From: a virus
Taxonomy: Duplodnaviria > Caudoviricetes
IMG/VR virus record: IMGVR_UViG_3300007363_000026
Coordinates: 1 to 54,512 of that record
DNA length: 54,512 nucleotides
Direction: 5' to 3' (one strand)
Shown: positions 325-25,016 of the stretch, piece by piece
Layout: every line of letters starts with the position of its first letter
Position numbering within the stretch: the stretch's first letter is position 1
Notes under the pieces: generated by a model
Database searches by the model: none
Seen by the model: only the letters and a program-made list of their open reading frames with translations
Told to the model about the DNA's origin: nothing
Position numbers and translations under genes: made by a program

Positions 325-573
325 TCAAACTAAGTTTTCAAGCTCTCGCGCCAGCGCATGAAGCTGCTGAGGAAGTTCGTCGTCGCCCACCATGTCGGCG
401 GCGTAGCGAAGGCGTCGAGAGATATCAAGGACGCGGCGCTCACGCTGGATCAACAAGCGGGCCACGCGCTCGATCAGGTGATTGCGCCCGCGCCCGACCA
501 TCCCGCGGCCGTCCGTGTCATAGATGGCCCGACGCGCCAGCGTCATGGCCTCATCCCAACTTGTTTCCTGCAC
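325..573 (-). CDS. hypothetical phage protein
   Basis: 82-aa helical ORF with AAGGAGG RBS upstream. Confidence 0.65.
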   Translation of the reverse strand: MQETSWDEAMTLARRAIYDTDGRGMVGRGRNHLIERVARLLIQRERRVLDISRRLRYAADMVGDDELPQQLHALARELENLV

Positions 574-592
574 TGGTCGCCTCCTTTGTCTC

Positions 593-823
593 TCAAAATT
601 CTACTGGCTTGTCATTGTCGAGATCGCCAACGCGCATAAGGACGTACATGCCGGGAGGCCTCCTAATCGCGCCGATAATCTTTTCCTCATGGATCGCAAC
701 GATGTGCCTGCCGTCGGCGGCAGCGGTGCGGATTATCTGATCCTTGCGATCCTCGGTTTCCATGGCGACAATCTCTAAAAGTTCAGTGAATAGTTTCACA
801 TGGGCCACCGCCGCCTCCTTCAT
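593..823 (-). CDS. hypothetical phage protein
   Basis: ATG at 823 overlaps the upstream stop (ATGA); MKEAAVAHVK... Confidence 0.6.
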   Translation of the reverse strand: MKEAAVAHVKLFTELLEIVAMETEDRKDQIIRTAAADGRHIVAIHEEKIIGAIRRPPGMYVLMRVGDLDNDKPVEF

Positions 824-1395
824 CTCGTCTTCTGCCGGGGGCCAAGCTTCGCGTGCGCCCGCCAGCGGTTCATTCGCGGATTGATAGCCTTGAACGCGGC
901 CTCGCACTCCACCCAGCCCGGATACTTCTTCACGTTGGACCAGATGCCCTCGAACCGTTCCCACTCTACATCCGTGAGCACGACAGCGCGGCTCTTGTTC
1001 GTCTTGGCCATCGCCTGACCGCGCACGTGCTTGGCAAGCTGGGTCCGCACCACTTCCAGCATGGCCTTGCGAAGCCCAGGCGTATCGGCTGTTAGGCCGG
1101 TATCCAAGTCCCTCACGGCGGCGCTGCAACCTCTAGGGAGCTTTGCCAGTTTAGCCGTGAACGCATCATAGTCGCGGAGCATATCAGAAGCCCGCTTGCG
1201 CGGCTCCGCCAGCAGGAACGCATACGCCAAAACGACGGTGGATTTCTCGCGCACCATCCTAAGCAGATACTCACGCGGGTGCTCGCCAAGGTCTACGATG
1301 CGCTTCACGCGCTCCGCTTCAAGGCGTGCACGCTGTTCAGATGCGGAGAGCCACCTATGGTGGCGCACGACGCCGATGTAGTCTTGGTCAACCAT
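820..1395 (-). CDS. degenerate resolvase/serine-recombinase-like protein
   Basis: N-terminus YIGVVR...SASEQRARLEAERVKRIVD...STVVL resembles the resolvase fold (IGYARVS...Q...L), but the catalytic RVS is absent. Confidence 0.5.
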   Translation of the reverse strand: MVDQDYIGVVRHHRWLSASEQRARLEAERVKRIVDLGEHPREYLLRMVREKSTVVLAYAFLLAEPRKRASDMLRDYDAFTAKLAKLPRGCSAAVRDLDTGLTADTPGLRKAMLEVVRTQLAKHVRGQAMAKTNKSRAVVLTDVEWERFEGIWSNVKKYPGWVECEAAFKAINPRMNRWRAHAKLGPRQKTR

Positions 1396-1398
1396 TTG

Positions 1399-1446
1399 TG
1401 CAAATCTACTTTACTGGTTGCAAATCGTCAACCGCTTTGGTAGAGT
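1399..1446. promoter_or_regulatory. overlapping divergent sigma70-type promoters with TGCAAATC direct repeats
   Basis: Plus: TTGCAA(1418)-17-TAGAGT(1441). Minus: TTGACG(1431)-17-TAGATT(1408), placed for a leaderless start at ATG 1395. TGCAAATC at 1399 and 1419. Confidence 0.6.
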
Positions 1447-1455
1447 GCACGCAGG

Positions 1456-1695
1456 ATGAAGTCAACAATCAATGAGACAGAGGCCTCTGACATGTGCCAA
1501 TGCAGTCAGTGCAACACGACACCAGAGCAAGAGGCGCACTTCTACCTCAGTGCAGCCATCGAAAATTTGACCGAAAATCAGACACAGCTTGATGCGGACG
1601 GGGTGCGAGTTGGCGTGTCGCGTGAGGCATTGGAGATAGTTCTTCGGCACCTCACGATGCCGGATCTTTCGGCCAACGATCCAACTCCGTTCTGA
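1456..1695 (+). CDS. hypothetical protein
   Basis: First ORF of a plus-strand four-gene cassette; QLDADG.VGVSR motif. Confidence 0.6.
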   Translation: MKSTINETEASDMCQCSQCNTTPEQEAHFYLSAAIENLTENQTQLDADGVRVGVSREALEIVLRHLTMPDLSANDPTPF

Positions 1696-1717
1696 AGTGA
1701 AGGAAAGGGCCACGGCC

Positions 1718-3208: not shown

Positions 3209-3466
3209 TTAGGAAGTTTTCGGCGGCTGCTTCGGCTCTGGGCAGTCGTCAGAATAGACGGTCTTCTTCCCGCTCTTAAGGGTTGCCAGCACAGAGTTGT
3301 GGGCAATCACCTGTTGGCGGGTTTCTTTCGTGTCCTGACATGACCAGCCAATCGACTTGAACGGCTTAAGGTTTGTCGCTGGGATCTCTCTTGGCTGGGT
3401 CTCGCACCCCGCGCTTGCCAGAGACAACATCAGAGCGCACATCGTCAGACTTTTGGGCGTCTTCAT
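3209..3466 (-). CDS. o-spanin-like lipoprotein (Rz1-like)
   Basis: Lipoprotein signal MKTPKSLTMCALMLSLASAGC; overlaps the upstream gene in another frame. Confidence 0.6.
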   Translation of the reverse strand: MKTPKSLTMCALMLSLASAGCETQPREIPATNLKPFKSIGWSCQDTKETRQQVIAHNSVLATLKSGKKTVYSDDCPEPKQPPKTS

Positions 3467-3620
3467 TGGCTTTCTTCTCAATCTTTTCATTCTGCATGCG
3501 GGCGCCTACCGAGCGCTCATGCTTTTGCCAGACCTTGAAGCCACCAAGAGCGACCACCGACACTCCGAGTAGCTGGAGCACGCGGGAACCAAGAAAGATG
3601 CGGGCAAGCGCAAGCATCAT
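3366..3620 (-). CDS. i-spanin-like protein (Rz-like)
   Basis: N-terminal TM helix plus charged coiled segment, directly after the endolysin. Confidence 0.6.
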   Translation of the reverse strand: MMLALARIFLGSRVLQLLGVSVVALGGFKVWQKHERSVGARMQNEKIEKKANEDAQKSDDVRSDVVSGKRGVRDPAKRDPSDKP

Positions 3621-4405
3621 TGCACTGCCTCCTTTGGAAGATAGCGGCCTTCCTCATAGTCTTGTCGCGTGAAGTATTTGAACGCTGCGAAGGCCAGAGC
3701 CGCGAGCACGCAGAAGGCAATAGCCATCTCGATCCCGTATTCCTTGATGAAAGCGGCGGCCTGCTGCGCGTAGCCAAGGCTGTCGGCAATGGTTAGTCCG
3801 GCCAAGCTCAGACCTGTTGTTGCCGTAAGAGCCTGCCCAGCGTTGGCTGTGGCCACCTTTCTGGATCCCTCCGGGACATCTGCCGGCGGCGCCACGAGCT
3901 GCGGCATATCCGGCCCCTTTGACGGCTCGTCTGGCGTAAGAAACATGGCCGTCTCGCCTGCGCGGCGTCTAACCAGCCCAGGCAACACCACAAGCTGCTG
4001 CGTCCTTGGGTTTCGAGCCTTGTTGTAGAGCGCAAAAGACCGGGACGCTCCAGCCGGATCGCCTGCATTCAGCTTCTTGACAATGCTGGAGGCGCCAAGG
4101 GCGTAAACCCCACAATTGTAGGAGAACGAAACCAGTGCATCGAACTGGTTTTGCGTCATGTCGACCGTTACCACTCGGTTGACTGCGGCCTCGTGCTTCG
4201 CAAGTTCAAGCTTGAAGCGGTCAAGGGCCTGCTGGCGCGTCCATACCTCACCCTCTCGGATGCCTTCAGTGCATCCGTAGCCGATTGTGAGCACCCCTGC
4301 GGGGCAGTAGTACGTCGTGCAATCACCGTTCGGGAGTTCCCGGTGGTAGCCCTCGAATGAGGCAATGAACTCAACGCCTTTTTGGGAGATCTTCATTTCA
4401 GTCAC
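3617..4405 (-). CDS. endolysin, GH24 lysozyme with C-terminal hydrophobic helices
   Basis: FEG...CPAGVLTIGYG, QNQFDALVSFSYNCG and GLVRRRAGE motifs; hydrophobic C-terminus. Confidence 0.9.
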   Translation of the reverse strand: MTEMKISQKGVEFIASFEGYHRELPNGDCTTYYCPAGVLTIGYGCTEGIREGEVWTRQQALDRFKLELAKHEAAVNRVVTVDMTQNQFDALVSFSYNCGVYALGASSIVKKLNAGDPAGASRSFALYNKARNPRTQQLVVLPGLVRRRAGETAMFLTPDEPSKGPDMPQLVAPPADVPEGSRKVATANAGQALTATTGLSLAGLTIADSLGYAQQAAAFIKEYGIEMAIAFCVLAALAFAAFKYFTRQDYEEGRYLPKEAVQ

Positions 4406-4485: not shown

Positions 4486-6110
4486 CAGTAGAGCGTCGCG
4501 ATTGGTCCCACACCCGTCGTGAACGTCGTCGGCGGCGTGATGGTGGTAAATGTGCCGTAGGTTTCGCCGGTCTTCTTGCTGGCGCGGAAGCGGCCAAACG
4601 TGTGCGAATTGAAGCGGTACCCTGTGTTATTGCACTGGAGTAACACGTAGTACGTGGCTGGACCGTAGAGCGTCGTCGAGGCTGACAGAGCCAGATCCTG
4701 ATAGGCGTCAGTGCCAGAGGCTGCCGTTGATGCCGTCTGCACCAGAACAGCGCCTGAACTTGTCGCAATGGCCGCCTTGATGTTTCCAGCCACTGCCGAG
4801 CCGTTGAAGATGGAAATCCCCGTACACGTGCAGTTCGCGGCAACAAACACCTCTGCAATGTAGGTTTCCGTAACGGACGGGGTGGTGTCGGTGCCGTCCG
4901 TCGAAACCTGCGCAGGAATGCCGCCGGTATGGAAGGCAGTCGCCTGCGCGACATATCCGGTTCCAAGTGCATAGGTCGCTGTCGGAAGCGCAAGAATGAT
5001 CCATTTTACAGTGATGTTCTTCGGGCGTGTTTCCGACGTGCTGTCGTTCGCCGCCGTATTGGCAACCGTGACGCTGATGCCGGTGGTGTTGGAGGCCGTG
5101 GCCTTGGTGGCTGCACTGCCAATCGTTGTGTCATTATCGCCGGTTATGTTGAACCCGGTCGGGGTCGCGCCGCCTCCATTACCAGCAAGACGAGCGTCAG
5201 AAGTCATGTTGTGCGTGTGGCCGGGGTCGGTCACAGACGCCGTGTGGTTGTGGCGCAGGAAAGCAGACGCCTGCTTTGTACCAACTGAAGCGCCCGTGGT
5301 GCCGTCGCCGCGATCGGTTCGAGAACTTGCCTCCGTACCGGATGCGTCAAAGCCGCGAAGGAAGTAATCCTTGTAATTTGGCAGGTTGAACGTTGTTGAG
5401 CCGTCACCCGTGCCGTAATTGGTGCCGATAACGGCAAACAGCGCTGAATAGGTGGTGCGCGAAACCGCCGTCCCATCGCACTCGAGCCAGCCGCTTGGAA
5501 CCGTCGTCATGGGCCAAGCCATAACCACGCCCACGGACATGGCCACGGGGTTGGCCGCGCTCGACTGCAGGATAAACTGCGTCCCGTCGTAAACGACAGA
5601 ACACATGATGTTGGCGATGATCTCGCCAGACGTCAGAGCCTGACCGGCCGCCGTATAAACGTTTTTGGTGCCGTTGCCGTCCACGTTAATGGTGACGGTG
5701 CTCGAGCTGGTGGCGGTTGGTATGAACGTGAACCGCTGGCCAGCAACGTATGAAGTCAGGCTATAGCCCGTCGTCAGCGTGATGGCATTTGCCGTGCCGC
5801 CGACCGTAGGTGCCCAAATGCCCTTCTGAGACACCACATCATCAAGGCGCGCGTAATTGAGAGGACCAGCCGCGGCTCCGACGTTGGAGTGATAAAACCC
5901 GCCCATCGGAAGGTGAGCCGTGGCCGTGTTGCCGCCATCTTTCTTGAGGCAAGAATTGACGCCGTCCGCAATGTCCTGATCGTGGACATCATGGTCGGAA
6001 GCCACGATATCCCGACCTGCGGCATCAGCAAGCTGCCATGTGGTCGACCCAGTGCGCGTGCCATCCGTCCGAGAGAACGTCTGACTGCCGGTTGATCCGC
6101 TCCAAGACAT
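4485..6110 (-). CDS. tail fiber protein with tail-collar domain
   Basis: GVVMAWP...PSGWLECDG.AVSRTTYSALFAVIGT.YG.GDGSTTFNLP collar motif; ETRPKN motif; Thr/Gly-rich. Confidence 0.85.
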   Translation of the reverse strand: MSWSGSTGSQTFSRTDGTRTGSTTWQLADAAGRDIVASDHDVHDQDIADGVNSCLKKDGGNTATAHLPMGGFYHSNVGAAAGPLNYARLDDVVSQKGIWAPTVGGTANAITLTTGYSLTSYVAGQRFTFIPTATSSSTVTINVDGNGTKNVYTAAGQALTSGEIIANIMCSVVYDGTQFILQSSAANPVAMSVGVVMAWPMTTVPSGWLECDGTAVSRTTYSALFAVIGTNYGTGDGSTTFNLPNYKDYFLRGFDASGTEASSRTDRGDGTTGASVGTKQASAFLRHNHTASVTDPGHTHNMTSDARLAGNGGGATPTGFNITGDNDTTIGSAATKATASNTTGISVTVANTAANDSTSETRPKNITVKWIILALPTATYALGTGYVAQATAFHTGGIPAQVSTDGTDTTPSVTETYIAEVFVAANCTCTGISIFNGSAVAGNIKAAIATSSGAVLVQTASTAASGTDAYQDLALSASTTLYGPATYYVLLQCNNTGYRFNSHTFGRFRASKKTGETYGTFTTITPPTTFTTGVGPIATLY

Positions 6111-6131: not shown

Positions 6132-6800
6132 CTATGCCCAAGACGCGGCAACGATGCTGCGCACGCCGGATGAACCCGCTCCACTAATGCTGCGGCCGGT
6201 CTGTGCTGCCAGGTTTTGATTGCTGCCCGTTGCCCACCCAAGGCCAGAAAGAGCCGCGTTGCGATCCGTTGACAGGCCGCTCAGAGTGATGGCCTCAGTA
6301 ATATTGCTGCCCGTCGTTGCAATGGCGACGCCGCTGTCCGGCACATTCAAGCTACACGAAACAGATGTCACGGCATTGCCGCTGCCAGTTGCTGTGTGAT
6401 ACGGCGTCGAGCTTGAAAGACCAGAGACATTGTAACCGTTGACGCATAAGCCGCGAGACGCCGATGAGCCGAAACCAATGACAACGCTTTGGTTGCCCCC
6501 AGGCGACACAATCGAGGCGATGGCCGATGCCAGCGCGAGAGATGAGCCGTTATTGCCATACGTCTGAACGTTGATTGTCGCTGCCACGCCGTTGACGGTT
6601 ACGCTTGAGACGGACAAGGACGAGGCGGCTTGGTTGGCGATGACGCACAGCACCAACAGACTGCCGGCAGATCCCGTGTTGAAGTTACTGAACGTGTAAT
6701 TGCTGGCGTTTGCGGCGAACGGCGTCGCCTCGTAAACGTAGATGCTAGAACCAGCAGCCCCGCCAGATCCAAACCCCACAAGATGCGTTGCGAGAAACAT
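6132..6800 (-). CDS. virion structural / tail-associated protein
   Basis: Ser/Gly/Thr-rich beta-type composition, next to the tail fiber. Confidence 0.6.
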   Translation of the reverse strand: MFLATHLVGFGSGGAAGSSIYVYEATPFAANASNYTFSNFNTGSAGSLLVLCVIANQAASSLSVSSVTVNGVAATINVQTYGNNGSSLALASAIASIVSPGGNQSVVIGFGSSASRGLCVNGYNVSGLSSSTPYHTATGSGNAVTSVSCSLNVPDSGVAIATTGSNITEAITLSGLSTDRNAALSGLGWATGSNQNLAAQTGRSISGAGSSGVRSIVAASWA

Positions 6801-7594
6801 CAGGTGTCTGTGTTGGCGTCGGTGGTCAGGAACAGCGTAATGCCGTGCAGGCGCGCATCAATGGCCATGGTGTCGGAGCCATCAGAAGGAACTCGCTTCA
6901 CCTGATACACAACCCAATCCTGTGCGGCTGGCGTGCCGGCGATGGTGATGGCCGAGCTTTCGGCCGTGATGTAAATCGTGTTTGTGGTGCCGCCCGTGTC
7001 AGCAACCTGCTGCGCCGTGCCAAAGGCCGCATCCCCAGCGTCACCGTCAGAGATCGCAACGGCCTCGAGCGCCCAGACCACACCGAAATTCGTCGTCGTC
7101 GCTGCGTGGCTCCATGTCGCTTGGAACGTCACGGTGCTCTCGTTCCATGACTTCGGCATGCGAATGGAGAACTGCGCGAATTCCTGCGTCGTGGTGTCGA
7201 AGTCCAAGGACTTCAGCATCACCTTATTGCTGGATGTCTCGACCGTGCCCGTTGAAGGCCCGTTGGTGGTCCTTGAGACCATGGCTGTGGCCGGTATCCA
7301 GACCGTATGCTTGCCAGCCCCGTTGACCGCTACGCCATTCTCTGTGATTGCACCCGTGGTTGCCAGTGTCCCGACCCCGGACATATTGCCGGAATCGTCG
7401 ACAGTGATTGCGCTGGCTTGCGCTCCCTTGGCTACCCCGTCCGACCGAAGAACCCGGTTGTCATTGGTGAACGCCGCAGACGCAGAAACTGCGTTGTAGG
7501 CCCCTGCTGTCCGCAGTGCCTCGATTTCAGTTCCAACGTCGGAGAAGTTGTCCCCGTTGTTGGATGGGTGATGGATGATCTTGTTGGACTTCAT
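6800..7594 (-). CDS. virion structural / tail-associated protein
   Basis: Thr/Ala-rich with LDFD...EFAQF...MPKSW motif; coupled to both neighbours. Confidence 0.6.
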   Translation of the reverse strand: MKSNKIIHHPSNNGDNFSDVGTEIEALRTAGAYNAVSASAAFTNDNRVLRSDGVAKGAQASAITVDDSGNMSGVGTLATTGAITENGVAVNGAGKHTVWIPATAMVSRTTNGPSTGTVETSSNKVMLKSLDFDTTTQEFAQFSIRMPKSWNESTVTFQATWSHAATTTNFGVVWALEAVAISDGDAGDAAFGTAQQVADTGGTTNTIYITAESSAITIAGTPAAQDWVVYQVKRVPSDGSDTMAIDARLHGITLFLTTDANTDT

Positions 7595-21748: not shown

Positions 21749-23849
21749 TTACGCGACGATGACGCCGTGACGAGCCGCATTGCTGATGGTCAGGTTGCCC
21801 ATCCAATACAGCGGCGTAACAGTCGCATCCTGGTTGACGGCGACCTTGTCTTTCAACACCACGAAGTTCCGCGATTTCGCTGGACGGAAATGCAGATACT
21901 TCGAATTAATCATATACATACGATTGGTGTTGCAGTTCGGGTCATAGAAGACCGTCGCGCCCTTGTACTTGTAGCCACGGAAACCACCGACTGCCTTTTC
22001 GTTGGCATCCATGAAGCGCTGCTGGGCTTGCAGGCTTTCCTCGAAGTAGGTGAAATAGTTTTCACCGGCTACCACGAGGTCAACGTGTTCCGTTCCGCGT
22101 TCTGCACGGAGATAGATCACGTTCATTGCATGCTGGATCGTCGTCGACGATGCCGTCACGCTGTTGTCGCTGAAGTCGTAATACTGGTTGCGCCACCAAG
22201 TATTGCTGCTGCGATCGATGCCGCCAACCGTGCCAGAGGTCGGAAGATCGGCAAGAAGGTGCTGCAGACCACCGATCGCCTTACCGCCCTGCTCCGTGTT
22301 GGAGTAGAACAGAGAAGCCGAAATGTTGTTCTGCAGAGTGGCCTCTGCGACCTCGATGCGGGCTTTGATGAGGTTGTGCATGGCCTCCGCACCGGAGTTC
22401 TGCACTTCCTCAAGGCCACTCATCGTGACGTTGCAGTTGGCCTGCTTCCAATCGAAGTTTGCCGTCGTCAGAACGTCGGAAGCTTCGACACTGAGGTATT
22501 CATCGATGTGTTATCGCTAGCCTGTTTATGACTAGCTTCTGCATGTCGCCATGCAGTCCAGACTATATCATCGCTTTCGCGTCGGGCATTCGTGGGCGGG
22601 TTATTCTTTCGTCACCGCCTAGTCGTTACACCTTCCACAACCCTGAAAATCCAGAGGATTTCTACGTTTGTGGCTTGGCTCGGTATTGGCTCAGAAACCC
22701 CTCATTTGGTATAGTGAGCGTTCCACCGAATTAACCCGATTTGCTGTTGTTACTCAGGATCGCCATGGCCAAGAGAAAGCTCAAAGGTCAGTACTTCGTA
22801 TGTCAGTACTGCTCTGAAACCTTCTATCGAAGACCATCCCATGTGCGCCGCGGGATCACGAAGACCTGCGGCAAGCGCCAATGCATTAGCGCATCGGCCA
22901 TGGGGGAGAAGAACCCGTTTTGGGGAAAGAACCATTCATCCGAAGTCAAGGAGCACATCAAGAAGATGCGTCGTTCTCGTCCGCCTCGCCCGCCTGGAGC
23001 CGCCAAGTATGGCCCGCTCAAGGGCACTTACGTTGCCAGCAAGGAAGCCAGAGAAAAGATCTCAGCGGCTGTCAAAGCTGACTGGGCAAACAACAGAGAC
23101 AAGAGACTTGCGGCTGTCGCCAAGGGCACGGAAGTTAAGCTCTCAAAGTTCTTCAACAAAGAGCCGCGCCATCGTGTCCGCTTCACTCCAATGCAACATA
23201 AGGAGTGGGGCGAAAAATCTTGCAAGTGGTGTGATGCCACCGAAGACTTGGTTCTTGACCACATCTTCCCGGTAATGGCTGGCGGCACGAACCGAAGGGC
23301 GAATGCCCAAACGCTGTGCCGCAAGTGTAACCTTTGGAAGATGCGCTTTATAGATCGTCCTCTCGTGTTAGCGATGCTGGATAACAAAGGGGCTGATCAC
23401 AACCCGGAGTACCAAGAGCAAGCTGTTACTTTCGCGGACTCCACCGCTACTGACCATCAACCGGATGGCGGGGAAACCTCTTCGGGTCTCCCTCTCTGGC
23501 TTCACAAGAAAGCGTCATAACCAGAGAGCAGACTGTCGCATCCCTTTCGGGTCACCTCGCTCAGTCGTTCACGGCGGGCTGGGTGGCCCTTCCGCCTTGT
23601 CACCCTCGCCAGGGCTTCCAAGTCAATCAGAGGTGATTTATCCACGTCCTAAAGATTTAACGTGCCATTTTCTGCGTACTTGAGGTTCTCCAACAGCTTC
23701 ACGCCACCCGTCGCCGGATCGGTGTTGCCGTTGTTCTTGAGGTAAAGCAGAAGAACGTTGTTCGTGAGAACGTTGTCCGCCAGCTTTGACCGGTAGTTGT
23801 CGATGGTCGTAGTCAGGATTTCGGAATAACTGGTGTTCGGCGCGGCCAT
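21749..23849 (-). CDS. major capsid protein, spliced: join(23849..23659, 23418..23402, 22503..21749), 320 aa
   Basis: Joining the exons gives 963 nt in frame, reading ...KYAENGT-F-SWYSG-Y-EYLSVEASDVLTTANFDWKQ...; located after the scaffold gene. Confidence 0.85.
22504..23401 (-). ncRNA. group I intron 2 (898 nt) with HNH gene in the P2 loop
   Basis: P1 GGGU/GCCC; long P2; P3 UCGGG/CCCGA; P4 UUCGGU/ACCGAG; GUAACGACUA and GAUAUAGUC (P7); extra hairpin between P7 and P3; P9 CUGCAUG-GCGA-CAUGCAG; terminal G at 22504. Confidence 0.9.
22686..22715 (+). promoter_or_regulatory. candidate antisense promoter for the intron HNH gene
   Basis: TTGGCT-18-TATAGT with extended -10 TG, inside the P5 region of intron 2, about 50 nt before ATG 22765. 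Confidence 0.5.
22765..23520 (+). CDS. intron-associated NUMOD3 + HNH homing endonuclease, antisense to the capsid gene
   Basis: AGGA RBS; CQYC/TCGKRQC Zn finger; NUMOD3 GEKNPFWGKNHS.E.K..I; HNH CKWC...LDHIFP...GG.N...N.QTLCRKCN. Confidence 0.85.
   Translation: MAKRKLKGQYFVCQYCSETFYRRPSHVRRGITKTCGKRQCISASAMGEKNPFWGKNHSSEVKEHIKKMRRSRPPRPPGAAKYGPLKGTYVASKEAREKISAAVKADWANNRDKRLAAVAKGTEVKLSKFFNKEPRHRVRFTPMQHKEWGEKSCKWCDATEDLVLDHIFPVMAGGTNRRANAQTLCRKCNLWKMRFIDRPLVLAMLDNKGADHNPEYQEQAVTFADSTATDHQPDGGETSSGLPLWLHKKAS
23402..23418 (-). other. 17-nt micro-exon of the capsid gene (C TCT TGG TAC TCC GGG T)
   Basis: Lies between the terminal G of intron 1 and the U.G of intron 2 P1; restores the frame and encodes SWYSG. 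Confidence 0.8.
23419..23658 (-). ncRNA. group I intron 1 (240 nt, no own ORF)
   Basis: P1 CACGUU/GACGUG with U.G at the splice site; P3 UCACCUC/GAGGUGA; P4 CUUG/CAAG; P7 GACUG/CAGUC; P8 CCC-GAAA-GGG; several P9 hairpins; terminal G at 23419. Confidence 0.85.
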
Positions 23850-23879
23850 AGCCGTGTTGCCTTTCTCTTAAGGCCCGAA

Positions 23880-25016
23880 TTATCCGTGCTGCGCCATTGC
23901 GTCGCGAATGATGTCGTCGAGGGATTTGGGTTTTGCTGATTGCGTTGCCACGGACGTTGCGGGCTTCACAGCCGTAACCCGTTTTGCGCGATCTGCTTCA
24001 CGAGCTTTTTCCGCCTTTGCGACTGCCATTTTTCTCTCGATCTCGAGTTGAGACGAGCGAAGTTCAGGATGCGCCCACATGGCGGCTTCGTAGGCCGCTG
24101 CGAGTTTGTCCTGGCCTTCTGGCATCTGAGCGATTTCGGGGTAAGAGTTCATGATCTCACCCATCTGTCGCTGCAGCTTGTCGAAGTGCGGGAATTTGAG
24201 CTGGCCGTTGTCGTCCTGTTGGGCACGAAAGGTCTGGATCTGGTTAACCAGAGCCCTTTCCTGCTGTGCCTGTGCGGACTGGCGAGCCCAAAGCTCAGCC
24301 TTTTCCCTTTCAGATAGCTTCGCCTCGAATTGCGCAAGACGTTCTTCGAGCAGCTTCACCTTGGGATCGGACAGAAGGGCTTCGAGGCTTTGCTCGGGGT
24401 TTTCCTGCGTGTCCGGCTGATTTGCGCGGAAGCCAAGATCTTCGGGCTTGATGCCGAGTTGCTGAAACGCCCATTTTGCATAGCCGACTTTGTCACGAGC
24501 GGCGAATTGCTGGATCTGGTGAAGGTACTGCAAGTATTGCAGTTCATTCAGTCCAGTCGCAGCCATTTGCTGGCGTGTGGTGTCGTCTATGATGGAACGA
24601 ACAGCGTCGGCCATTTTGGCCTTATCGCTTAGCTCCTGAGATCTGCGCGTGAAGCCACCCTCAAGATCCTTAGCCAATCGTTTGATGATTGACTGAGCAT
24701 CTGGAGGGAGCGCACTGAACGCCTTTTTGTCGGCTTCTGGCCAGTGTTGGGGTGGGTCGAAAGTCTGAGGTTTGTCCTCTGGCTTTTGGCCTTCCTCTAC
24801 TGCGTCGCCGGCTTTGGCATCTTCACTGCTGCGCTGATCTTCGGCCGTTTGCTGAACGCCTGGTTCAAGGAGCGCCTCGACATCGTCGTCTTGCTTCTGA
24901 ACCTCATTACCACCTGTCGTTGCCGCAACCGCCGCGCTAATCGCATCCGACAAGCCCATTCCGCTGCCCGTATTGCCAGATGACTGGCCACTGCCGGCTT
25001 GGGAACTTACGTCCAT
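23880..25016 (-). CDS. capsid scaffolding protein
   Basis: Acidic N-terminus, PPQHW motif, Gln-rich coiled coil, C-terminal SLDDII; directly before the capsid gene. Confidence 0.75.
   Translation of the reverse strand: MDVSSQAGSGQSSGNTGSGMGLSDAISAAVAATTGGNEVQKQDDDVEALLEPGVQQTAEDQRSSEDAKAGDAVEEGQKPEDKPQTFDPPQHWPEADKKAFSALPPDAQSIIKRLAKDLEGGFTRRSQELSDKAKMADAVRSIIDDTTRQQMAATGLNELQYLQYLHQIQQFAARDKVGYAKWAFQQLGIKPEDLGFRANQPDTQENPEQSLEALLSDPKVKLLEERLAQFEAKLSEREKAELWARQSAQAQQERALVNQIQTFRAQQDDNGQLKFPHFDKLQRQMGEIMNSYPEIAQMPEGQDKLAAAYEAAMWAHPELRSSQLEIERKMAVAKAEKAREADRAKRVTAVKPATSVATQSAKPKSLDDIIRDAMAQHG

Follow-up and report, generated by a model that had tools for sequence, protein, structure and literature searches.

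Twin group I introns, a 17-nt micro-exon and a backwards HNH endonuclease gene in an Mx8-like phage capsid gene

How does a homing endonuclease gene on the strand opposite its host gene come to start inside one intron, read through a 17-nt exon and stop in the intron next door, and does this arrangement make the two introns and the endonuclease a single mobile unit? The question is raised by IMG/VR record IMGVR_UViG_3300007363_000026, a 54.5-kb viral contig (Caudoviricetes) with an estimated completeness of 85%. The whole stretch of 54,512 nucleotides is called the window below. Its major capsid protein (MCP) gene lies on the minus strand (23849-21749) as three exons separated by two introns 17 nt apart, and an open reading frame (ORF) for a NUMOD3-HNH endonuclease runs across them on the plus strand (Table 1). 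We consider it likely that two independent group I introns have met at a capsid hot spot, and that the HNH ORF bridging them is a tolerated accident of a missing stop codon.

Capsid exons and the two introns

Among named proteins, the MCP is closest to the Myxococcus phage Mx8 major head protein (43.5% identity over the last 224 residues), and a protein search with the 3' part of the gene returned 1068 relatives at E<=0.001 among 1510 candidates. One capsid homologue, P0003, is uninterrupted (320 aa, 94% identity) and reads ...ENGTFSWYSGYEYLSVEASDVL... where the window gene is broken. Conceptual splicing of 23849-23659, 23418-23402 and 22503-21749 yields 320 codons with no internal stop, and the product is identical to P0003 at 296 of 320 positions with no gaps. 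This reconstitution confirms what the sequence-only reading of this DNA had proposed, namely that two introns split the capsid gene around a 17-nt exon. The peptide contributed by the micro-exon, SWYSG, occurs a single time in the 1156 nt separating the outer exons and was reached in 8 of 20000 shuffles. The insertion points fall in capsid codons 64 (intron 1) and 70 (intron 2), both 5' exons end with U and both inserts end with G. Identical contigs across the junction were found in other samples, and the same phage sequence is present in several samples. The four sequencing runs compared with the window are all contigs, two of them labelled RNA-Seq and marked as probably DNA, and none of the runs listed is recorded as RNA.

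Rfam finds a single match in the window, intron 2, at 22794-22539 (RF00028; score 56.9 bits, cut-off 50; model positions 1-253). The alignment is poor over P1 and P2; the true P1 and P2 lie 600 nt upstream. The two strands of P2 pair over ~650 nt with -21.6 kcal/mol (z -4.85), and none of 300 shuffles was as good. Different sequences form the same pairing in the related loci L060 (0/300 shuffles as good), L070 (1/300) and L063, L064, L066 and L067 (2-5/300), and pairing is weak in L061 (61/300) and L068 (16/300), in a comparison that excludes L056-L058, L065, L069 and L200 (5' anchor) and L062 (no 3' anchor). In intron 2 the exon U wobble-pairs with the guide G, and the intron terminus reads ...ATCG. 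The P1 pairing covaries to CGGU/GCCG in the L058 family. Judged by its model match and its helices, intron 2 is a group I intron. On the capsid strand, the P1 hairpin and the U-rich stretch behind it are called terminator-like in the window (23390-23405) and in L060 (879-894) alike; this call is probably just P1, and pausing or ending of the capsid RNA there is possible.

Intron 1 has no ORF and gave no Rfam match even at E<=10 when 22300-23900 was scanned. At the gathering threshold, Rfam likewise has no match in five other interrupted capsid loci (L015, L016, L018, L051 and L053), and the minimum-free-energy fold of intron 1 alone is not significant (z -1.52). Its homologues in L015, L018 and L051 share 75-79% nucleotide identity with it and sit at the identical site, after base 2 of codon 64. 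An RNAalifold consensus of five sequences supports conserved P3-P9 helices with the P3/P7 pseudoknot: compensatory changes are seen at 19 of 53 pairs, and P3 alone covaries at 6 of its 7; P7 (GACUG/CAGUC) is present and invariant in the covering sequences, and is hence uninformative for covariation. The guide tracks the exon from locus to locus, with CACGUU/GACGUG in the window and L018, CACAUU/GGUGUG in L015 and UACCCU/GGGGUA in L051, and the terminal G of the intron is kept in all four. Because of the same-site homologues, the covariation and the exon-tracking guide, we conclude that intron 1 truly is a group I intron and that its family is missed by the Rfam model.

This family is common, with blastn similarity in ~70 among 119 viral matches listed by core motif (L203-L321); the core-motif scans returned at least 119 matches each and are not censuses. 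Since the family is both common and invisible to the Rfam group I model, split capsid genes with intron-1-type inserts are prone to mis-annotation as fragments. In L221, a capsid gene ~32% identical to P0003 carries two intron-1-type cores (2323-2494 and 4597-4767) and is in at least three pieces.

Table 1. Features of the split capsid gene, its introns and the opposite-strand endonuclease gene (positions in the window)
Feature	Position	Strand	Basis
Capsid exon 1, terminus ...ACGTT	23659..23849	-	ORF list; tblastn with Mx8 and Bradyrhizobium phage MCPs; conceptual splice
Intron 1, ORF-less group I, 240 nt	23419..23658	-	same-site homologues; covariation
Intron 1 P1	23664-23659 / 23648-23643	-	
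Intron 1 P3	23636-23630 / 23558-23552	-	
Intron 1 P7	23566-23562 / 23535-23531	-	
Intron 1 P8	23551-23542	-	
Intron 1 P9	23528-23521 / 23499-23492	-	
Micro-exon, 17 nt, codes (F)SWYSG(Y)	23402..23418	-	P0003 match; conceptual splice; shuffle control
Intron 2, group I, 898 nt	22504..23401	-	RF00028; P2 duplex
Intron 2 P1, exon GGGU with guide GCCC	23405-23402 / 23393-23390	-	
Intron 2 P2	23388-23371 / 22763-22747	-	
Intron 2 core, P3-P9	~22745-22539	-	
Capsid exon 3 including stop codon	21749..22503	-	ORF list; Mx8 match; tblastn; conceptual splice
NUMOD3-HNH endonuclease ORF, 251 aa and stop	22765..23520	+	Pfam; 103 relatives; codon-position bias
HNH ORF C-terminal overrun, residues 211-251	23395..23520	+	missing in L058-type proteins; pLDDT; codon-position pattern
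Sigma-70-like promoter candidate, TTGGCT-18-TATAGT	22686..22715	+	sole promoter-like site in 22300-23900
AGGA ribosome-binding site, 5 nt before ATG, in antisense of P2 3' strand	22756..22759	+	sequence

The opposite-strand HNH gene

Because the P2 strands pair over ~650 nt, the HNH ORF sits in the P2 loop of intron 2. From its ATG at 22765 (alternative TTG at 22741) next to the 3' strand of P2, it leads through the P2 loop and the P2 5' strand, then through the guide and the loop of P1, and on across the micro-exon into intron 1. After 102 nt of intron 1 it ends with a TAA at 23518-23520; this stop adjoins the 5' strand of P9 (23528-23521) and so falls in the P9 loop. The mapped coordinates thus agree with the earlier description of an ORF on the strand opposite the capsid gene and introns that starts in the P2 loop and stops in intron 1 P9; the feature start that it gave, 22747, corresponds to no ORF boundary. 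Its proposal that the same 17 nt serve three roles also stands at the sequence level: they encode (F)SWYSG(Y) of the capsid, their last four bases, GGGU, form P1 with GCCC, and in antisense they encode N-P-E-Y-Q-E. The micro-exon is thus a clean natural illustration of how densely coding, ribozyme structure and antisense coding can stack on the same DNA.

The predicted protein matches HNH_5 (E 3.2e-10), HNH (E 1.7e-7) and NUMOD3 (E 2.4e-7) in Pfam. The two HNH profiles (PF01844 / PF14279) give scores of 40.2 and 31.7 bits, above their cut-offs (27.5 and 21.4), and NUMOD3 (PF07460) scores 31 bits against a cut-off of 20.4, with 20.9 in L058 and 19.6 in L060, at or below the cut-off. NUMOD3 occupies residues 49-72 and HNH residues 161-208. 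There are 103 relatives at E<=0.001, and an alignment of 57 sequences shows invariant zinc cysteines in two CxxC pairs (C153, C156, C185 and C188) along with invariant D165, H166, N180 and N189. Of the structures in the PDB, the Mn-dependent nicking endonuclease Gme HNH comes closest (4H9D; phmmer E 1.3e-4, Foldseek E 0.018), and I-HmuI is not among the PDB sequence or fold matches. The product is probably a nicking homing enzyme; the placement of its gene in an intron, the purifying selection on it and its patchy occurrence point indirectly to homing.

Two comparisons bear on whether the ORF is maintained as a protein. Contigs of two runs from another study contain a variant that is ~95% identical over the whole region and keeps the twin layout; 26 of 35 listed differences between 22805 and 23247 fall at third codon positions of the plus-strand frame (p 8.6e-7), a count that covers those 35 differences while 45 more exist. 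Between the window and L060, whose proteins are 64% identical, the HNH core has 63, 47 and 122 differences at codon positions 1, 2 and 3. By these substitution patterns, the core of the HNH ORF is under purifying selection. In a more distant relative, L200 (HNH 33% identical), the layout is the same, with a backwards HNH lying upstream of an intron-2-type core (355-786 (-) and 1178 (+)).

The promoter candidate is antisense to the ribozyme core of intron 2 and ends 50 nt before the ATG. L060 and L058 have one promoter-like site each, in the corresponding position and 42 and 53 nt ahead of the start codon, which makes three of the three intron-2 members scanned with a site 42-53 nt before the ATG. 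Two results weaken the reading of these sites as promoters: L051 has no promoter-like site, and no single match exceeds chance (1 found, 0.6-0.8 expected). It is the position common to three members, not the single scores, that makes the candidate credible. We therefore think that the HNH gene is probably expressed from a promoter of its own, antisense to the ribozyme core, and with its own ribosome-binding site, antisense to the 3' strand of P2. The likely promoter, the ribosome-binding site and the C-terminus of the endonuclease would then be written on the back of ribozyme helices. A terminator-like hairpin lies at 23838-23859 (+), ~320 nt past the HNH stop and opposite the capsid start codon; terminator-like sites around the HNH and capsid region occur at chance frequency (2 found, 1.7 expected).

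The C-terminal overrun is antisense to P1 of intron 2, to the micro-exon and to 102 nt of intron 1. In L056-L059, L065 and L322 (46-49% identity) the proteins end ...MLASKAAS, 40 residues earlier. The L058-type stop lies inside a P1 loop of 26 nt; in the sub-lineage of the window the P1 loop has 8 nt and no in-frame stop, and the ORF consequently runs out of intron 2. Counted from the start of the last CxxC motif, the C-terminus is no longer than 33 residues in 86 of the 103 relatives and reaches 40 or more in 15. In an AlphaFold model built on the 57-sequence alignment, the predicted local distance difference test score (pLDDT) is at least 83 for most blocks of ten residues as far as residue ~210 (range 61-97), then drops to 63 for residues 211-220 and to 48-51 for residues 221-251. 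Between the window and L060, the tail has 13, 15 and 14 differences at codon positions 1, 2 and 3 and 5 synonymous to 18 non-synonymous codon changes, against 68 to 69 in the core; the tail differs from the core (Fisher p 0.029 and 0.014), in a contrast drawn from one pair and 37 aligned codons. Long tails have V-T and G-G-x-T-S-S in common, and these residues correspond to conserved intron 1 RNA motifs read in antisense. Because the 40-residue tail is rare among relatives, predicted to be disordered and without a coding-type substitution pattern, it is most likely a tolerated, unstructured by-product rather than a functional domain.

The window is not alone in this respect. L060 and 8 of the 103 proteins continue into intron-1-like antisense sequence. 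P0123, which represents a group of 7 members with a 75% identical HNH, has a tail ...NPEYQEKVPFSA that is the antisense of exon 1; the plus strand of the window from 23660 reads NVPFSA, matching this tail. Within the intron-1 family, L051 carries its own antisense HNH with a stop codon that overlaps the 5' splice site, and in L245 the antisense HNH of an intron-1-type intron (6774-7490 (+), E 6.3e-11) runs ~90 nt past the 5' splice site and thus overlaps capsid exon 1 on the opposite strand. Overrunning is, across the loci compared, recurrent among the backwards HNH genes of these introns.

One mobile unit or two separable introns

The sequence-only reading had suggested that both introns may travel with the endonuclease as a single unit, and had named independent distribution of the introns among relatives as the outcome that would speak against it. 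Interruptions are present in 5 of 52 viral-contig capsid loci (L015, L016, L018, L051 and L053), 3 of them at codon 64. At the site of the window, the intron-1 type stands alone in L015, L018 and L051; the intron-2 type with its antisense HNH stands alone in L056-L059, L063-L070 and L322. In L058, L065 and L069 the best U/G junctions place the intron-2 type in codon 67, 9 nt upstream of the codon-70 site, and L322 is the only L058-like locus among genome contigs. L061 and L062 hold another kind of twin, in which an upstream intron-2-type core, an apparent micro-exon of ~28 nt and an intron-2-type intron follow one another and the HNH of the second intron ends within its own intron. In all, the capsid motif GTFSWYSGY is a hot spot with at least five arrangements: no intron, the intron-1 type alone (either bare or carrying an antisense HNH), two kinds of twin, and the intron-2 type plus HNH at codon 67 or at codon 70. 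In L061, a 157-aa GIY-YIG ORF (PF01541, 24 bits against a cut-off of 22.6) lies in capsid sense at 1241-1714 (-), just upstream of the first core, and this twin may carry two different endonuclease genes in opposite orientations.

A related HNH is present in 2 of the 119 matches listed by one core-motif scan. The pattern joining the end of the micro-exon to the start of intron 2 had no viral-contig match, in a scan that perhaps did not take in the window's own record. A contig beside the ~95% twin variant continues past 22486 with WYSGYEY codons, which is a hint of an allele without intron 2 and a hint only, as the joints 22486/23588 and 23495/23608 have short sides (30 and 25) with unknown letters between.

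The intron 2 cores of the window and L060 are 84% identical (185/220), against 61-68% for other relatives. The intron 1 parts of the same two loci are 64% identical (74/116), against 67-73% between the window and single-intron loci; the contrast of 64% with 84% sets a peripheral region (P8-P9.2, 116 columns) against the ribozyme core. Because each intron occurs alone, and because the intron 1 part of the window is no closer to that of L060 than to those of single-intron loci, we conclude from these comparisons that intron 1 and intron 2 are separable elements, combined more than once or with one of them replaced. The proposed single unit is thus not shown, and is in part contradicted by the occurrence of each family on its own: tested among relatives (L015, L018 and L051; L056-L059, L063-L070 and L322; P0123), the introns are independently distributed.

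Taken together, the results fit a scheme in which two group I introns of different families lie 17 nt apart at the hot spot codons ...GTFSWYSGYE... of an Mx8-like capsid gene. The terminal loop of intron 2 P2 holds the opposite-strand gene for a zinc-binding HNH enzyme with a NUMOD3-type DNA-binding part at its N-terminus. Both introns would self-splice from the late capsid transcript, restoring the 320-aa protein. In a mixed infection, the HNH enzyme would nick an intron-less capsid allele near the site and recombinational repair would copy intron 2; intron 1 would usually be copied too, since only 17 bp separate the two. Co-conversion of both introns is plausible when the recipient lacks both. 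The HNH ORF leaves intron 2 at its 5' end and stops at the first chance stop, in the P9 loop of intron 1.

Several points weigh against this reading of two independent introns. All known long tails reach the conserved motif of intron 1 in one frame, and the twin layout is kept across HNH identities of 53-100%; a shared frame and a persistent twin layout could reflect selection for a bridging ORF. The shared frame is partly ascertainment, because only open frames are visible as long tails. The presence of intron 2 without intron 1 in a close relative, P0123, is inferred from the protein tail only, because that tail reads exon 1 in antisense. To these are added the single pair of loci behind the tail contrast and the mixture of peripheral and core regions in the identity contrast.

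Pressed further, such points would describe an integrated composite element, in which the bridging ORF is selected, the tail works in the endonuclease or in regulation, and the introns and homing endonuclease gene (HEG) form one unit. We find this unlikely. The overrunning twin does recur, in L060, in the ~95% variant and in 8 of 103 relatives (53-100% identity), with the conserved motif of intron 1 read in the same frame each time, and identical junction-spanning contigs do occur in other samples. However, 86 of 103 relatives do without the tail, P0123 has antisense exon 1 sequence in its place, and the tail itself is predicted to be disordered and does not show a coding-type substitution pattern. 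Neither is the window's intron 1 closer to that of L060 than to those of single-intron loci, and the agreement in frame is lessened by the fact that only stop-free frames come into view.

It is also possible that the HNH gene is kept for a purpose other than homing, for example to cut the capsid gene of co-infecting competitors, with the introns inherited only vertically. In its favour, the ORF is under purifying selection, and PMC11620839 describes a PhiPA3 intron endonuclease that interferes with a competing phage. We regard this as unlikely: both intron families are patchy across capsid genes 30-95% identical and come in several arrangements, and this patchiness argues for horizontal spread. 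Competition and homing are, moreover, not mutually exclusive.

A stronger form of the single-unit idea, that the twin introns and backwards HNH make up one co-adapted mobile element whose plus-strand mRNA links expression of the endonuclease to when, or how efficiently, the capsid RNA is spliced, seems improbable to us. Because the ORF bridges both introns, precise loss of either would rewrite the C-terminus of the HNH protein. If the idea were true, the plus-strand mRNA would be fully complementary to the unspliced capsid pre-mRNA (the 3' end of intron 1, the micro-exon and P1-P2 of intron 2) and complementary to only 17 nt of the spliced capsid mRNA. Finally, that nothing is spliced, a free-standing HNH gene having inserted into the capsid gene and broken it and the 17-nt match being a coincidence, agrees with the failure of Rfam to recognise intron 1 and is highly improbable given the exact, in-frame reconstitution (296/320 identical, no gaps), the rarity of SWYSG in shuffles (8/20000), the exon-end U, intron-end G and guide pairing of both inserts, the Rfam match of intron 2, the covariation of intron 1, and the same phage sequence in several samples.

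Known systems and other interrupted capsid genes

I-HmuI and I-HmuII, from Bacillus phages SPO1 and SP82, are intron-encoded HNH enzymes with NUMOD-type modules that nick a single strand and home with co-conversion. Enzymes of the I-HmuI type have an N-terminal HNH followed by C-terminal NUMOD and helix-turn-helix modules, and their genes are sense-oriented within one intron. The window HNH shares with I-HmuI the combination of an intron-encoded HNH with a NUMOD-type DNA-binding module. It differs in its reversed domain order, with the HNH C-terminal, in its antisense orientation and in bridging two introns. Membership in the I-HmuI type was considered and rejected on the reversed domain order and the lack of I-HmuI among the PDB matches. 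Fungal mitochondrial genes contain mini-exons flanked by two group I introns; these differ in being organellar, and most of their ORFs have the sense orientation, with in-frame fusion to the preceding exon being frequent.

The sequence-only reading had taken it as established that phage intron endonuclease genes are sense-oriented. This holds for I-TevI and I-HmuI and does not hold as a general rule, since in the mycobacteriophage LittleE capsid intron, shown to splice, the bottom strand encodes the endonuclease (Pope et al. 2013, PMC3706429); the accessible text likens the ORF to a LAGLIDADG enzyme, and a figure legend calls it HNH. LittleE resembles the window in having a phage major capsid gene, a group I-type intron and an endonuclease gene opposite the host gene. 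It differs in having a single intron, and that text describes neither an overrun nor a micro-exon. Nuclear rDNA L2066 group I introns carry antisense His-Cys box HEGs (PMC9548176), again with the homing endonuclease gene on the strand opposite the ribozyme; as far as the text at hand goes, these differ in being eukaryotic, in having an rRNA host gene and another nuclease family, and in expression via spliceosomal introns. As described in these sources, antisense endonuclease genes in group I introns are already known. In the literature searched, with supplements outside the search, we found no antisense intron endonuclease ORF leaving its intron, none bridging two introns, and no likely promoter antisense within a ribozyme core.

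Collaborative or trans homing, the term used in the sequence-only reading for the carriage of intron 1, is described in the available text of PMC2988022 for F-CphI with the psbA intron of cyanophage S-PM2 and for mobE with the T4 nrdB intron; the same text treats co-conversion as well documented for phage homing. The likeness is that intron 1, which lacks an ORF, could be moved through repair and co-conversion by an endonuclease encoded elsewhere. In its strict sense the term does not apply here, because the helper is not free-standing and its gene lies inside the P2 loop of the neighbouring intron. A further difference from the systems in that text is that the relatives of intron 1 in L051 and L245 carry an antisense HNH of their own.

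The capsid family as a whole is a good system in which to see how introns and endonucleases meet, compete and hitch-hike. Away from the hot spot, the capsid genes of L053 (~3312-4001 and ~4564-5292) and L016 (~4804-5476) are interrupted near residues 85 and 269. The insert at residue 85 has a sense ORF with a LAGLIDADG-like start; the inserts at residue 269 have an opposite-strand ORF, and their 3' ends resemble the core of intron 2.

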